The position numbers and the translations under genes were made by a program. From Candidatus Bathyarchaeota archaeon (lineage in GTDB: Archaea; Thermoproteota; Bathyarchaeia; TCS64): 49,377 bases of DNA. The stretch spans positions 1 through 49,377 of the forward strand of contig JBDRQD010000073.1 of assembly GCA_043826455.1 (NCBI GenBank), read 5' to 3'. Below the pieces are notes generated by a model. It searched no databases, was not told the origin of the DNA, and saw only the letters and a list, made by a program, of their open reading frames with translations. Below, piece after piece: positions 43,872 through 49,377 of this stretch. The first letter of the stretch is position 1; each line of letters opens with the position of its first letter.

Positions 43872-46079
43872 ATGCCACGATATAAACAAACAGACGACAT
43901 CCTCAAGCTGATGCATAATCGGGACAAGGTCCGAAACATCGGCATAATCGCTCACATAGACCACGGTAAGACCACCATGAGCGACAGCCTCCTGGCCCAG
44001 GCGGGCCTCATGGCCCCCAACCGGGCGGGGGAGGTTAGAGCCCTGGACTACCTGGAGGAGGAGCAGAGGAGAGGTATTACTATCAAGACGGCCAACATCA
44101 GCCTCATGTACGAGGAGGGGAAGGACCAGTACGTCATCAACCTCATCGACACCCCAGGCCACGTGGACTTTTCAGGCAAAGTCACGAGGGCCATGAGGGC
44201 CCTGGACGGCTGCATCCTGCTGGTGGACGCAGTGGAGGAGTTCCAGATCATGACGGAGGTCAGACTCCGCATCGCCCTGGACGAGATGGTTAAGCCTATA
44301 TTATACATCAACAAGTTCGACAGGCTCATCAAGGAGCTGAAGATGGACCCCCAGGCCATCCAGAAGAAGCTTCTCAGAATAATCAACAAGTTCAACGAGA
44401 TCGTTCAGACCTACGGCCTAGACGAGGTGAAGAACGAGTGGACGGTGAACGCGGCCAAGGGCGAGGTGGCCTTCGGCTCGGCCCTGGATCTATGGGGCTT
44501 CACCCTACCGATGCTTCAGAAGAACGGCCTCACTCTCCCCGACATCGTAAAGATGTACGGCGACGGTAAGCTGAAGGAGCTGCAGGAGATGCTGCCCCTC
44601 AGCGAGGCCATACTCAGCATGGCCGTCCACAAGCTGCCGTCACCCGACGTCCATCAGCCCCGCAGAATCAAGCAGATCTGGAAGGGCGACCTGGAGAGCA
44701 AGATGGGCAAGTCCATGATGGCCGTGGACCCTGACGGCCCCGTAGTCATATGCCTCACCAATATAGTCATCGACCCCCAGGCCGGCGTAGTCAGCACTGG
44801 CAGGGTGTTCAGCGGCACCATCAGGAAGGGTGAGACATTGAACCTTCTGGGCGCCGAGAAGGTGTTCAAGGCCCAGCAGGTCAGCATCTACATGGGTCAG
44901 TACCGTGAGATAGTGGACGAGATCCCTGCGGGTAACATCGTGGCGCTCCTCGGCCTATCAGAGGCTAGGGCGGGCGAGACCATCGTGAGCCCGGACATAC
45001 TGGACCACGCGTTCCCCTTCGAGTCCATGAAGTACTTGTCTGACCCCGTCCTCACCATAGCTGTGGAGCCCAAGAGGCCCATGGACCTGCCTAAACTCAT
45101 CGACGCCATGCAGAAGCTGAGCATCCAGGACCCCAACCTGGTGACCACCATAAACCAGGAGACCGGAGAGTACCTCCTGGCGGGCATGGGTGAGCTCCAC
45201 CTGGAGATCGCTGTCAAGGACATCAAGAGTCAGTACGGCCTGGACCTCATCCAGACGGAGCCCACAGTAGTCTACCGTGAGGCCATAAGGGAGGAAGTCG
45301 GTCCCTTCATGGGCAAGAGCCCCAACAAGCACAACAGGATATTCTTTAACTTCAAGCCCCTTGACGACAACATCATACAGCTCATCAAGGATGGCGAGAT
45401 CAACGAGCTCCTAAGCCAGAGCCGCCTCGAGGAGGTCCTCGTCAAGAAGGCTGGGTGGACCACACGCGAGTCGAGGCAGGTCTTCGCCATCAACGAGAAC
45501 GCCAACGTGCTCATAGACACCACCGTAGGCATACAGGGACTAAGGGAGGTCAAGCAGCACATCAGCGGAGGCTTCCAGTGGGCCCTCCAGAACGGGCCCC
45601 TAGCGGGTGAGACAGTGAGAGGCCTCCTCGTGGACATGATAGACATCAAGCTGCACGAGGACCCAGTCCACCGTGGTCCAGCCCAGATGATGCCCGCAGT
45701 CCGCGGAGCCTTATTCGCCGGTATACTAAGCGCCAACCCGACCCTCCTTGAGCCAATATACAAGATTAGCGTCCGAGTGCCGGCGATGGAGATGGGTAAC
45801 GTCACAGGGCTCCTCAGCAGGAAACGGGGAAGCATCCACAGCGTGGAGCAGGACGGACCCATCGTCAACATAATAGGCATGATCCCGGTCTCCGAGACCC
45901 TGGGCCTCTCCCAGGAGCTGCGCGCAGCCACCAGCGGCGCCGCCTTCTGGCAGATGACCTTCGACCACTGGGCCCCGGTTCCAGACAGCATGCTCCTGGA
46001 GCTGATCGAGAAGATCAGGACAAGGAAGGGGATGAGCCCCGAGCCGCCGAAGGCCAGCGACTACGTAGTCCGCGAGTAG
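43872..46079 (+). CDS. fusA: Translation elongation factor aEF-2
   Basis: AHIDHGKTT, RGITI, DTPGHVDF, NKFD and diphthamide loop LHEDPVHRGPAQ. Confidence 0.96.
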   Translation: MPRYKQTDDILKLMHNRDKVRNIGIIAHIDHGKTTMSDSLLAQAGLMAPNRAGEVRALDYLEEEQRRGITIKTANISLMYEEGKDQYVINLIDTPGHVDFSGKVTRAMRALDGCILLVDAVEEFQIMTEVRLRIALDEMVKPILYINKFDRLIKELKMDPQAIQKKLLRIINKFNEIVQTYGLDEVKNEWTVNAAKGEVAFGSALDLWGFTLPMLQKNGLTLPDIVKMYGDGKLKELQEMLPLSEAILSMAVHKLPSPDVHQPRRIKQIWKGDLESKMGKSMMAVDPDGPVVICLTNIVIDPQAGVVSTGRVFSGTIRKGETLNLLGAEKVFKAQQVSIYMGQYREIVDEIPAGNIVALLGLSEARAGETIVSPDILDHAFPFESMKYLSDPVLTIAVEPKRPMDLPKLIDAMQKLSIQDPNLVTTINQETGEYLLAGMGELHLEIAVKDIKSQYGLDLIQTEPTVVYREAIREEVGPFMGKSPNKHNRIFFNFKPLDDNIIQLIKDGEINELLSQSRLEEVLVKKAGWTTRESRQVFAINENANVLIDTTVGIQGLREVKQHISGGFQWALQNGPLAGETVRGLLVDMIDIKLHEDPVHRGPAQMMPAVRGALFAGILSANPTLLEPIYKISVRVPAMEMGNVTGLLSRKRGSIHSVEQDGPIVNIIGMIPVSETLGLSQELRAATSGAAFWQMTFDHWAPVPDSMLLELIEKIRTRKGMSPEPPKASDYVVRE

Positions 46080-46143: not shown

Positions 46144-47535
46144 ATGAAGATCAGAAATTATGAACACTTGGAGTCAAACACGTGTAGCCTGGAGATGCGA
46201 AGGCTGCGGGCTGATGTGGTCATGATACTTGAGGCGGCCCTGAACGCCGTGGACCCCAGGAAGGCTGTACTCGCGAAGGTGCAAGCCTCTGAACTTGGGC
46301 TGAGGATCGATGACTTGAACCTGCCTTGGGATGAGATCAGAGACATCGTTGTGGTGGGCGGAGGCAAGGCGGCTGGCCCCATGACCGAAGCCATCGAGGA
46401 GGCGATTGGAGATAGGGTGAAAGACGGGCTTGTGAACGTTCTCAAGGGGACGGAGACCGGCTGCAGCTTGAGACGCGTTAAGCTCAACCCCGCCTCGCAC
46501 CCCATACCCGACAAGGAGGGGGTGAGAGGTGTGAGAGCCATGATGCGGATGGTTTCCGGCTTAAACCGGAGAGACCTTGTCATCTGCCTAATCTCAGGAG
46601 GCGGCTCAGCGCTGATGCCTCTCCCAGCCGAAGGCGTAACCCTCGACGACATCCAGAGCGTCACAGGCTTGCTCCTCAAGGCCGGGGCCACTATAAATGA
46701 GTTAAACGCAGTGAGGAAGCACCTCTCAGCCTTCAAAGGCGGCCAGCTGGCTCGAGCCTGCCAGCCAGCCCGGGTTGTTAGCCTCATCCTATCTGATGTC
46801 GTCGGTGACCCTCTGGACACTATTGCCTCGGGGCCCACCTCGCCGGACCCGACGACCTTCTCCGTTGCGGTCAGCGTACTGAAAAAGTACGGGGTCTGGG
46901 ATGATCTGGCTTCAAGCGTAAAGAGTCGGCTTGAGGCTGGGGCGCGGGGAGAGATACCGGACACGCCCAAGGCTGATGACCCCATGTTCAATAACGTCCG
47001 CAACATCGTGGTGGCTAGCAACCTCACAGCATCCAAGTGGGCCACGGTGGAGGCCGAGAGACTGGGTTACAGGGCACAGCTCTTGACCACTCGCCTTGAG
47101 GGGGAGGCCAGACACGCCGGAGTATTCATAGCGGGGTTAGCTAAAGGAGTCGTCGTCAACGGGCTACCCTTGAAACCGCCAACTGCTCTGGTCATCGGCG
47201 GCGAGACAACCGTCAGAGTCAGGGGGCAAGGGATCGGTGGAAGAAACCAAGAGCTGGCATTGAGCGCCGCCCAGAATCTATCAGGTCTCAACTGCGTCAT
47301 AGCCGCCCTGGGGACAGACGGCATCGACGGGCCCACTGACGCCGCCGGGGCCATAGTGGACGGCGAGACAGCGAGACGAGCCGAGGACCTGGGCCTAGAT
47401 ATTTACCGCTTCTTGGAGGCCAACGACTCCTACAGCTTCTTCAAAGCCATGGGGGACCACATATTCACGGGGCCCACTGGGACCAACGTCAACGACCTAA
47501 CCATATTATTGTGTGGAAAGAGGGAAGATGCCTAG
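46144..47535 (+). CDS. Glycerate 2-kinase (MOFRL family)
   Basis: GGGKAA, HPIPD, ISGGGSAL, SDVVGD, GGETTV, GGRNQE, TDGIDG and GPTGTNVND. Confidence 0.93.
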   Translation: MKIRNYEHLESNTCSLEMRRLRADVVMILEAALNAVDPRKAVLAKVQASELGLRIDDLNLPWDEIRDIVVVGGGKAAGPMTEAIEEAIGDRVKDGLVNVLKGTETGCSLRRVKLNPASHPIPDKEGVRGVRAMMRMVSGLNRRDLVICLISGGGSALMPLPAEGVTLDDIQSVTGLLLKAGATINELNAVRKHLSAFKGGQLARACQPARVVSLILSDVVGDPLDTIASGPTSPDPTTFSVAVSVLKKYGVWDDLASSVKSRLEAGARGEIPDTPKADDPMFNNVRNIVVASNLTASKWATVEAERLGYRAQLLTTRLEGEARHAGVFIAGLAKGVVVNGLPLKPPTALVIGGETTVRVRGQGIGGRNQELALSAAQNLSGLNCVIAALGTDGIDGPTDAAGAIVDGETARRAEDLGLDIYRFLEANDSYSFFKAMGDHIFTGPTGTNVNDLTILLCGKREDA

Positions 47536-47932
47536 CGACGCTGTGAAAAGAGAGGCACTTGAGCGCCTCACGGGGCTACTAACAGAGTTCGCCTCTACAG
47601 TTGACCTAGTGCTGGTGGAGGGCCCCAGAGACGTGGAGGCCCTGATGAGCCTAGGGTACACCGGCGAAGTGGCCACGTGCAGCAGGGTCCACGTCAACGA
47701 CGCGGAGCTGGCCGAGATCATCGCCTCGGAGAACAGGAACGTCCTCATCTTGACGGATTTCGATCAGGAGGGGGACGAGCTTAATACAAGGTTCTCTGAG
47801 CTCGTGGAGCACATGGGCGCTGTGGTTGAGAGGGGTCTTCGAGGTGAGGTGGGGCGGATAATGGCTGTCCTGGGTGTCCGCGTTGTGGAGGCATTGGACA
47901 ACGTCAGGGACTCTCTCAGCGAAGGTTATTAG
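47528..47932 (+). CDS. Stand-alone toprim domain protein (RNase M5/primase-like)
   Basis: LVEGPRDVEAL and ILTDFDQEG; start ATG 47528 overlaps the upstream stop. Confidence 0.85.
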   Translation: MPSDAVKREALERLTGLLTEFASTVDLVLVEGPRDVEALMSLGYTGEVATCSRVHVNDAELAEIIASENRNVLILTDFDQEGDELNTRFSELVEHMGAVVERGLRGEVGRIMAVLGVRVVEALDNVRDSLSEGY

Positions 47933-47973: not shown

Positions 47974-49377
47974 ATGGCCGAGCAGATCATGGACAAGGGC
48001 GTGAAGAGGCAGTTAAAGGCATTACTATGCATGCTGAAGACCAACGTCCACGACCACACCATTTACAGGATAAAGATGAACGAGCTCAGGAGCCTCGTGG
48101 AGGCCATGAACATAGAGGTTGTGGGCGAGGTCATCCAGAGCAGGTTCAAGCCCTTGAGTAAGTTCCACATCGGCAGCGGCAAAGTGAAGGAGCTGAGAAA
48201 GAAGGTCGAGAGCAGCGAAGTGGACATGGTCATCTTCTACAACATCCTGAAAAGCAGCCAGAAGCTCAACCTCCTCCAGGCCCTCAAGTGCGAGGTCATC
48301 GACAGGTACGAGCTCACCTTAGAGATATTCGACAGGATGGCTTCAGACCAGCTAAGCAAGCTCCAGATAGAGGCGGCTCGGCAGGAGAAGATGGCCCCCT
48401 TCTACAAGCTCCAGGCCAGCATCAACTACAGGTACGATCGGCCATTCTTCAGAAGCGGCGGCGAGTACGGGTTCCACGGCCAGCTCAGGGAGCTCACCAG
48501 GAGCCAGGCCAGGATAAGGGAAGAAATCGATAAGCTGATGGAGGAGAAGAGCCAGCAGATATGGAACAGGCGACGGCTAGGGTACCCCCTCATATGCATA
48601 GCGGGGTTTTACAACGCTGGAAAGACTAGCTTGTTCAACGCCTTGACCGGAGACAACAAGCTTGTGAGCGACAGGCCCTTCACTACCCTCACCAGCAAGT
48701 ACCAGCGTAGGTTCATTGACCACGAGACCTCGGTGCTCTTCATAGACACCATCGGCTTCGTCATCGACCTGGACCCCAGGCTCATCCAGAGCTTCAAGCT
48801 GAACCTCCTGGACATCAGGAGCTCGGACCTGGTCATCTTGCTCCTAGAGATCACTGACCCGCCCCTCACTCTCCAGATCAAGCTCAACGAGGGAGTAATG
48901 CTGCTGAAGGAGATCGGCGTCCCCCACGAGAGGATCATCGTGGTCTTCAACAAGCTGGACAAGGCCCCTGAGAAGGAGCACACCATAGGGGACGACGTGA
49001 ACATAAGCAGCCTCAGACTCCCCTGGATAAGTGTCTCAGCAGTGGACCGGATTAACTTCCAGGACTTGCTTAACCTGATAGCAAGCCGACTCAAAGTACT
49101 CAAGACTATGCCCTCGGAGCACGTGGAGGTGTCCAGCTTCAGGAGAGCGGAGACAGCCGTGAACAGGCTGCTCCAGGAGTACCCCTCAGACTACTCTCCC
49201 CCCACTAGAGACCCGTTCAGAGGCCTGGTAGCCACCATGCTGAGCCAGAACACCAACAGGAAGAACCAGTCCACGGCCTACCAGAGACTGGAGGAGATGG
49301 TGGGGATCACACCCGACAAGCTAAACTCTGCCCCCATGGAAGCTATAATTGAAGCCATCAGGCCCGCCGGCATGCAC
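47974..49377 (+). CDS. hflX: HflX GTPase fused in-frame to an endonuclease III (Nth)-like domain; truncated by window end
   Basis: Not in ORF track. 468 stop-free codons: IGSGKVKEL, VIDRYELTLEIF, KLQIE, G1 GFYNAGKTS, PFTTL, DTIGF, NKLD, SA; then RDPFRGLVATMLSQNT...TPDKLNSAPMEAIIEAIRPAGMH. Confidence 0.88.
   Translation, partial: MAEQIMDKGVKRQLKALLCMLKTNVHDHTIYRIKMNELRSLVEAMNIEVVGEVIQSRFKPLSKFHIGSGKVKELRKKVESSEVDMVIFYNILKSSQKLNLLQALKCEVIDRYELTLEIFDRMASDQLSKLQIEAARQEKMAPFYKLQASINYRYDRPFFRSGGEYGFHGQLRELTRSQARIREEIDKLMEEKSQQIWNRRRLGYPLICIAGFYNAGKTSLFNALTGDNKLVSDRPFTTLTSKYQRRFIDHETSVLFIDTIGFVIDLDPRLIQSFKLNLLDIRSSDLVILLLEITDPPLTLQIKLNEGVMLLKEIGVPHERIIVVFNKLDKAPEKEHTIGDDVNISSLRLPWISVSAVDRINFQDLLNLIASRLKVLKTMPSEHVEVSSFRRAETAVNRLLQEYPSDYSPPTRDPFRGLVATMLSQNTNRKNQSTAYQRLEEMVGITPDKLNSAPMEAIIEAIRPAGMH

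Follow-up and report, generated by a model that had tools for sequence, protein, structure and literature searches.

The 49,377-nucleotide contig of a Candidatus Bathyarchaeota archaeon analysed here (in its whole length, the window) ends in a single reading frame in which a full HflX GTPase is followed by an endonuclease III-like domain. At a probability of roughly 55%, we read this frame as an intact HflX and an intact iron–sulfur glycosylase domain that were merged once within a gene overlap, with both halves keeping their usual jobs and their expression locked together. Judged from sequence, a two-function protein on a short tether, each half acting on its usual substrates, is likely the best reading. 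The resulting domain architecture is built from two known families, extends across a lineage and is apparently undescribed. The initial annotation knew of no HflX-Nth fusion, and no description was found in literature on HflX-endonuclease III or HhH-GPD fusions, on Bathyarchaeia HflX or on Bathyarchaeota endonuclease III, in a search that covered few subscription papers and no supplements. Because named records are called only HflX or GTPase, databases hide the fusion.

Reading frame and its continuation

Translation of the frame gives 468 stop-free codons from ATG 47974 to the window end at 49377, in agreement with the initial annotation. The frame lacks a stop because the window is the whole of contig C73 and the frame runs off the contig. 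The features of the region are as follows.

43872..46079, + strand: elongation factor EF-2 (profile match)
46144..47535, + strand: DUF4147+MOFRL glycerate-kinase-type gene (profile match)
47513..47932, + strand: small toprim-domain gene, the usual upstream neighbour in the genus (profile match)
47974..49377, + strand: hflX-nth fusion frame with residues 1-468 of about 615; the contig end truncates it, and the remainder is on contig C68; 94% identical to the full-length relative P0002
48073..48330, + strand: HflX N-terminal domain ND1, PF13167, residues 34-119 (E 4.8e-25)
48343..48570, + strand: HflX helical domain with glycine loop, PF16360, residues 124-199 (E 0.0088, below cut-off)
48586..49107, + strand: HflX G domain (G1 48604-48630, G2 48676-48696, G3 48745-48756, G4 48949-48960, G5 49036-49041)
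49108..49134, + strand: linker, residues 379-387, where hflX and nth formerly overlapped; ATG 49108, which is not conserved, lies in it
49135..49377, + strand: N-terminal half of an endonuclease III-like HhH-GPD domain, with helix 1 and the LSQNT motif

The second half of PF00730 was located by a family search over the contigs of the same genome. The 3' remainder of the fusion is a 149-codon frame on the reverse strand of C68 (30498-30052). It shares 7 nt with the end of the window, in frame, and shows 88% identity to P0002 residues 467-615. The 7-base overlap is weak by itself, but both the homology to P0002 and the gene order in genome G029 agree with the putative join: G029 carries the toprim gene, the fusion (95% identity) and rpl3 in this order on a single contig, and on C68 the fusion is followed by rpl3-rpl4-(rpl23)-rpl2. 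The HhH motif with its lysine, the aspartate of PVDRH and the Cx6Cx2Cx5C cluster motif, which the initial annotation expected of a true HhH-GPD domain, are all present in frame on C68. As side observations, the spacer between the fusion and rpl3 on C68 (L003, about 1100-1330) is A/C-rich and of low complexity, and the C-terminal tail of this genome's fusion differs from those of close relatives; poor sequence quality near the contig end is possibly the cause.

The junction itself is crossed without gaps by contigs from three sequencing runs, as the initial annotation had wished to see. The contig from run X1 spans 48652-49376 with 0 differences, but it is not independent support since X1 is possibly the source sample. 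Two RNA-library contigs from other studies, X16 (48685-49272) and X17 (48234-49377), belong to relatives with 30 and 71 differing letters, respectively. They are no proof of transcription, as DNA carry-over is possible.

Conservation in the fused clade

Among 120 listed homologues, the best 77 cover 93-100% of the query at 94-63% identity, and 75 of these 77 are fused proteins of 570-629 residues with HflX and PF00730 domains; 43 of the 120 are HflX alone. The named records are from Ca. Bathyarchaeota. In total, 75 protein clusters with identities as low as about 60% contain the fusion. From 31 genomes of the same genus, 24 gave one full-length match and three a match that crosses the junction before the contig ends. 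One match ending before the junction and three genomes without a match (68-76% complete) were excluded as uninformative. All 27 informative genomes are thus fused; close relatives do not encode the two genes separately, and the idea of a stop codon lost privately in this genome, which the initial annotation had kept open, is refuted.

A related proposal was that ATG 49108 is the ancestral nth start. It fails as well, since ATG stands at that codon in one of 28 fused loci. Between codons 372 and 395, no position carries ATG, GTG or TTG in more than 6 of the 28 loci, and seven loci have none. These data also bear on the view that the frame is an artefact of assembly or of a stop lost in this genome only, and that translation of nth still begins internally at ATG 49108. 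The in-frame ATG, GTG codons at residues 384 and 386 and the distribution of the gene over two contigs in its own genome speak in favour of it; the 27 fused relatives, the 75 clusters, the scarcity of start codons and the gapless contigs across the junction speak against it. At the DNA level this explanation is refuted, and we regard it as hardly credible overall. Stop read-through at the junction was considered for four genomes of the genus flagged with TAG and rejected, as none has a stop at the junction: in G008 the TAG terminates the gene normally, in G013 TAG occurs at codon 52 and at the end, and G017 and G007 have none inside the aligned part. The gene of G013 (L007), counted among the 27, is otherwise intact; its codon-52 TAG would be either an assembly error or a recent pseudogene.

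Pooled over seven disjoint close pairs, dN/dS amounts to 0.064 for HflX, 0.105 for Nth and 0.146 for the linker. Purifying selection acts on both halves. The fused sequences group as a single clade in the HflX tree (25/25, support 0.999), in the Nth tree (24/24, 0.998) and again in the concatenated tree, with FastTree supports of 0.998-1.0 over the three trees. The Nth/HflX rate ratio is similar in fused and unfused proteins (1.58 vs 1.52; second estimate 1.68 vs 1.86). Accelerated change of the Nth half at the time of fusion was considered and rejected, since the ratio on the fusion branch, 2.67, is only the sixth highest of 42 branches and no outlier. Likewise, L279 and S284 were dropped as fused-specific interface marks because the HflX-only lineage P0092 has them too.

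The HflX half

The succession of a full HflX and an endonuclease III-like half, as first annotated, is borne out by TIGR03156 over residues 17-372 and PF00730 over residues 419-467. In the window protein TIGR03156 scores 216.8 bits against a cut-off of 216.75, and the scores of relatives (202-220 bits) fall on both sides of it. The helical region forms two long helices in the predicted model, and its glycine loop aligns with the loop of Sulfolobus HflX. GxxNxGKT together with DTIGF, as well as NKxD, are present in 75/75 fused proteins; T237, T238 and S355-A356 are invariant in the 68 of the 75 that were aligned (68/68). What had been annotated as substitutions in G1 and G2, GFYNAGKTS and PFTTLTS, are ordinary, as Sulfolobus HflX has GYTNSGKTS and LFTTM at the same places. 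A C-terminal domain of the bacterial type is absent after the G domain. The best fold matches of the modelled HflX half are ribosome-bound HflX and HflXr, and the fusion contains the sole HflX copy of its genome.

The linker and the Nth half

In the AlphaFold2 model (pTM 0.56) both halves are confident, and residues 379-387 form a low-confidence coil. The Nth-like stretch had been placed from about 49210, and DPF...LSQNT indeed begins at 49210. PF00730 matches residues 419-467 of the window protein with E 1.9e-5 and reaches 70.8 bits in full-length P0002 (cut-off 26.2). The Nth half of the model has the two-lobed HhH-GPD fold (Foldseek match 1ORN, rmsd 2.3 Å). K514 and D532, both encoded on C68, are invariant (68/68 aligned of 75 fused proteins) and align with the Lys and Asp of 8a5c; we take them to be the equivalents of the catalytic K120 and D138 in E. 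coli Nth.

The fusion of this genome carries all four cysteines of the Cx6Cx2Cx5C cluster motif, three of which are invariant among the 68 aligned fused proteins. The second Fe–S ligand, residue 589, is His in 38/75 fused proteins and Cys in 37/75; the 32 intact unfused relatives all have Cys. The genome tree separates the His and Cys forms into two sister clades with 12 members each (His-ligand examples: L017, L019-L028 and L030). About half of the lineage has accordingly undergone a natural Cys-to-His change in an Fe–S motif. The Nth half is damaged in three fused records, P0041, P0044 and P0073. P0041 lacks K514 and D532 through an in-frame deletion, and P0044 has a full-length cluster mate.

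The Nth half is not a canonical endonuclease III by profile: three fused proteins score 100-117 bits with TIGR01083 (cut-off 211.7), and 106-126 bits with NF053634, the DR2438-type monofunctional glycosylase profile (cut-off 400). A separate canonical nth lies on contig C17 of the same genome (TIGR01083, 245 bits), and canonical genes above the cut-off occur in 29/32 genomes of the genus. The Nth half of the fusion is an extra paralogue. A third Nth-like gene was noted in the same genome (G000, C50:2680-3336, L002; 214 aa), which scores 180 bits with TIGR01083, below the cut-off; genes scoring like it occur in about a third of the genus.

Unfused relatives and origin of the fusion

Outside the genus, 38 of 47 genomes of the order have this HflX. 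All 38 loci were retrieved and inspected, and none is fused. In 33 of them nth lies directly 3' of hflX, always in the +1 frame (33/33) and nearly always overlapping it. A conventional nth start (ATG, GTG or TTG) is found upstream of the hflX stop in 27 of the 33 pairs, and in 12 pairs the start, TTG or ATG, is at -14. Five pairs have only a CTG upstream, and in one pair the start is 16 nt downstream of the stop. The hflX stop is 88 nt before LSQ in 24/33 pairs; two pairs have it displaced by as much as 51 nt. Between the G5 serine and LSQ, 74/75 fused proteins have 68 residues, and the 32 unfused pairs for which the spacing was measured have n+1/3 codons (63.3-94.3). Because the fused spacing lies within the unfused range, no sequence had to be added for fusion, and given the +1 frame and the n+1/3 spacing, a small frameshifting indel in the overlap would suffice. 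A single frameshift within the overlap of such an hflX-nth pair, at the base of the genus, is therefore the likely origin of the fusion.

The uniform +1 frame might also suggest that the fused product is older than the genus, with sister lineages making a little of it by programmed +1 frameshifting at the hflX stop and the genus having hard-wired it. The constant 88-nt distance in most pairs and the five pairs without ATG, GTG or TTG ahead of nth helix 1 could be read in this way. Conversely, 12 different codons precede the hflX stop, with no slippery run among them; the start at -14 is ATG in some pairs and TTG in others, as is usual for a real start; an in-frame CTG is available in each of the five start-less pairs; and the stop is displaced in two pairs and the overlap absent from one. 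With so variable a pre-stop codon and a start that behaves as a genuine one, programmed frameshifting is improbable, and we consider this explanation very unlikely. As to the start-less pairs, L062, L064, L069 and L071 have only CTG ahead of nth helix 1, which makes CTG initiation likely. In genus g4 (L059, L062, L064, L065, L067-L071, L080), the C-terminus of HflX is an acidic tail that contains a conserved Gly-Asp-(Pro/Leu)-Asp, the codons of which supply an in-frame CTG or TTG for nth.

A second, independent HflX-Nth fusion was not seen. Among the best 150 representatives at 50% identity, only P0051, from the same clade, spans both domains, and nine long or doubtful HflX matches contain no HhH-GPD domain. 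Across 401 genomes of the class (E <= 1e-62, three candidates scored per genome), junction-spanning matches occur only in genus g1; these thresholds leave room for weaker fusions. The Atlas holds one cluster with the HflX + HhH-GPD architecture, with 86 members. Gene transfer to bacteria, suggested by two records with bacterial titles (L095, L098), was dropped, because these are the same loci as in G029 and G020 of the same genus, with archaeal neighbours; the records are probably mislabelled genomes.

Loss, unlinking and probable re-splitting

Beside hflX, nth is missing, decayed or frameshifted in 5/38 unfused relatives, whereas the Nth half is lacking in 0/27 informative genomes of the genus. 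One of the 33 adjacent pairs has a frameshifted nth. In four genomes hflX is followed by rpl3 without nth, one of them retaining an nth remnant, and a search of the rest of these four genomes (82-95% complete) did not recover the orthologue. The two genes are apart in G038, within the order, and in G121, outside it.

The P0092 cluster consists of four HflX-only records (P0092, P0270-P0272) on contigs of 7-47 kb, which end in the linker. P0092 nests among fused proteins with local supports of 0.93-0.98, in a larger tree that resolves the base of the fused clade only weakly. Since it nests there and has the marker residues of the fused clade, the fusion has likely been undone once. The DNA context of P0092 was not among the matches listed in the metagenome scan, which comprised nine other loci. 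Together, the loci display the stages of a gene fusion, from unlinked genes over a +1 overlap to the fused and likely re-split forms, and are informative in this respect even without functional coupling.

Gene neighbourhood

Domain matches upstream of the fusion support the annotated neighbours EF-2, glycerate kinase and toprim gene. The latter, first annotated as RNase M5-like, matches only PRK04017, a hypothetical family, in NCBIfam, below the cut-off. Across the genus the fusion lies between EF-2 and the rpl3 cluster, sometimes with a transporter or GrpB gene inserted. The hflX-nth pair is linked in three families though its flanks differ: the rpl3 cluster is just downstream in most genomes of the own family, and a tRNA intron endonuclease region flanks the pair in family f4. 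This long linkage is weakened as evidence for a partnership because the overlap itself resists separation. Outside the order, nth orthologues sit away from hflX, and one is beside a TatD DNase gene (G052, L048 2575-3342), which precedes it. In G037 (L040 1527-3314) a PolX-PHP gene is divergent from the hflX-nth pair.

Functional interpretation

By analogy with bacterial work, the HflX half would bind the large ribosomal subunit and split or guard stalled ribosomes. The Nth half would remove oxidised pyrimidines or cleave abasic sites in DNA, presumably as a back-up beside the canonical Nth of the genome. In the ancestor, nth may have been made by re-initiation at a weak TTG or CTG start inside the end of hflX; the frameshift would have replaced this weak re-initiation by 1:1 synthesis, and once the old start had decayed, a return would need a new stop plus a new start. 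Coupling of the Nth half to ribosome rescue or to RNA, as the initial annotation proposed, is unproven. The loss of nth in sister genera, the one likely re-split lineage and the unchanged relative rates argue against coupling; the long-lived linkage and the position in a translation gene cluster argue for it.

Tentatively, the data would also admit a closer partnership, in which HflX delivers the base-excision enzyme to stalled ribosomes and the once-coupled pair became one protein that clears the ribosome and cuts damaged transcribed DNA, or mRNA or rRNA, behind the stall. The linkage in three families, the 0/27 loss, the nearly fixed linker length and the fusion-branch ratio fit a selected partnership better than simple co-expression. 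Complex prediction for the unfused HflX and Nth of G036, from 30-row alignments, gave a score of 0.00 and a mark of 0.32 and counts neither for nor against a partnership. If delivery is true, the fusion would be the first direct link of ribosome rescue to base-excision chemistry.

What the glycosylase would act on at the ribosome can be specified in two ways. One is DNA at active genes: HflX on ribosomes trailing RNA polymerase would carry the glycosylase to heavily transcribed, partly single-stranded DNA, so that when a polymerase-stalling lesion also stalls the ribosome, HflX clears it and the Nth half starts repair. Here the substrate is DNA, and it is the tether that matters. Transcription and translation are coupled in archaea, which favours this idea, as do the linkage of the pair across three families, its place directly before the rpl3 cluster in most own-family genomes and the retention of the Nth half in all informative fused genomes. 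Moreover, the best sequence match among solved structures is D. radiodurans EndoIII-1 (8a5c, E 4.4e-33, vs 2e-19 for 2abk), which is mostly monofunctional and can process single-stranded DNA according to the available part of PMC10523315. However, identity to EndoIII-1 is only about 34% and the NF053634 score is far below its cut-off (126 vs 400 bits), hence the properties of EndoIII-1 need not carry over; nth has also been lost or broken in 5/38 unfused relatives, and one lineage is likely re-split. We find repair of DNA by a ribosome-tethered glycosylase rather doubtful.

The other is control of RNA damage. HflX would bring a glycosylase/AP lyase to ribosomes that are stalled or damaged, and there the enzyme would nick mRNA or rRNA with oxidised or abasic positions and mark it for decay, the Nth domain standing in for the C-terminal domain of bacterial HflX. 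The Nth domain follows the G domain, the position at which the bacterial C-terminal domain touches the stalk base (PMC12493154, seen in part), and Sulfolobus HflX lacks that domain (PMC3814362, in its accessible text). The separate Nth genes would be free for DNA work, and the gene sits between EF-2 and rpl3. A precedent is the ribosome-borne cleavage of abasic mRNA by Rps3 in bacteria (PMC11662941, accessible portion), and RNA in hybrids is a substrate of human MPG and APE1 (PMC10281472, likewise in part). Against this, the accessible text of the latter review on abasic RNA does not mention "endonuclease III", "NTH" or "lyase", and no RNA-level precedent for Nth-type enzymes was found in the portions of these two papers. 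The Nth domain keeps the standard motif set and fold of a DNA glycosylase, its orthologues outside the order lie away from hflX, one of them next to a DNase gene, and nth is dispensable in sister genera; the HflX G domain is moreover about 45 Å from the sarcin-ricin loop (PMC9067457, available excerpt). Action on RNA is thus unlikely. The fusion offers a direct test of a physical link between ribosome rescue and nucleic-acid repair, with the split relatives as natural controls.

Relation to known systems

With the HflX family (TIGR03156; SsHflX 2QTF; bacterial HflX/HflXr; human GTPBP6) the fusion shares ND1, the helical domain and intact G1-G5 motifs; unlike the family, it has a whole C-terminal HhH-GPD domain. 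Ribosome splitting is documented for bacterial and mitochondrial HflX members. Where bacterial HflX has its C-terminal domain, the only HflX of this genome carries a repair enzyme. Bacterial HflX binds the large subunit and clears stalled ribosomes (PMC12493154, PMC9067457 and PMC6028529, as far as their accessible text goes). SsHflX 2qtf is a sequence match (E 1.1e-32) and shares the absence of the HflX C-terminal domain (PMC3814362, same partial source).

From endonuclease III/Nth (TIGR01083, PF00730 + PF10576) the fusion retains the HhH motif, the catalytic Lys/Asp and the C-terminal cluster motif, and the nearest solved relative is D. radiodurans EndoIII-1 (DR2438; 8A5C, 4UNF; NF053634). 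It differs in falling below TIGR01083 (117 vs 211.7) and NF053634, in being joined to a GTPase, in being an extra paralogue and in the His ligand of 38/75 proteins. Rps3/uS3 also cleaves damaged nucleic acid at the ribosome (PMC11662941, in part), but it is an unrelated small-subunit protein, and such an activity of the fusion is hypothetical.

The unfused relatives resemble translationally coupled gene pairs. Termination-reinitiation couples overlapping pairs, and short overlaps are enriched for complex subunits (PMC10666635, accessible part; for coupled pairs see also PMC6728339, likewise partial); in 33 unfused genomes hflX and nth overlap or lie almost end to end. Unlike the common -4/-1 overlaps, the hflX/nth overlap is mostly 14-38 nt long and in the +1 frame, and one genus has made it a single frame.

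The HflX of the fusion belongs to a divergent subfamily, about 34% identical to HflX of the other orders of the class sampled. In a comparison of window positions 47974-49089 with L083-L092, the order's HflX was 31-35% identical to that of most other orders sampled. The subfamily has its own helical-domain loop and is common to G047 (49%) and G121 (58%).
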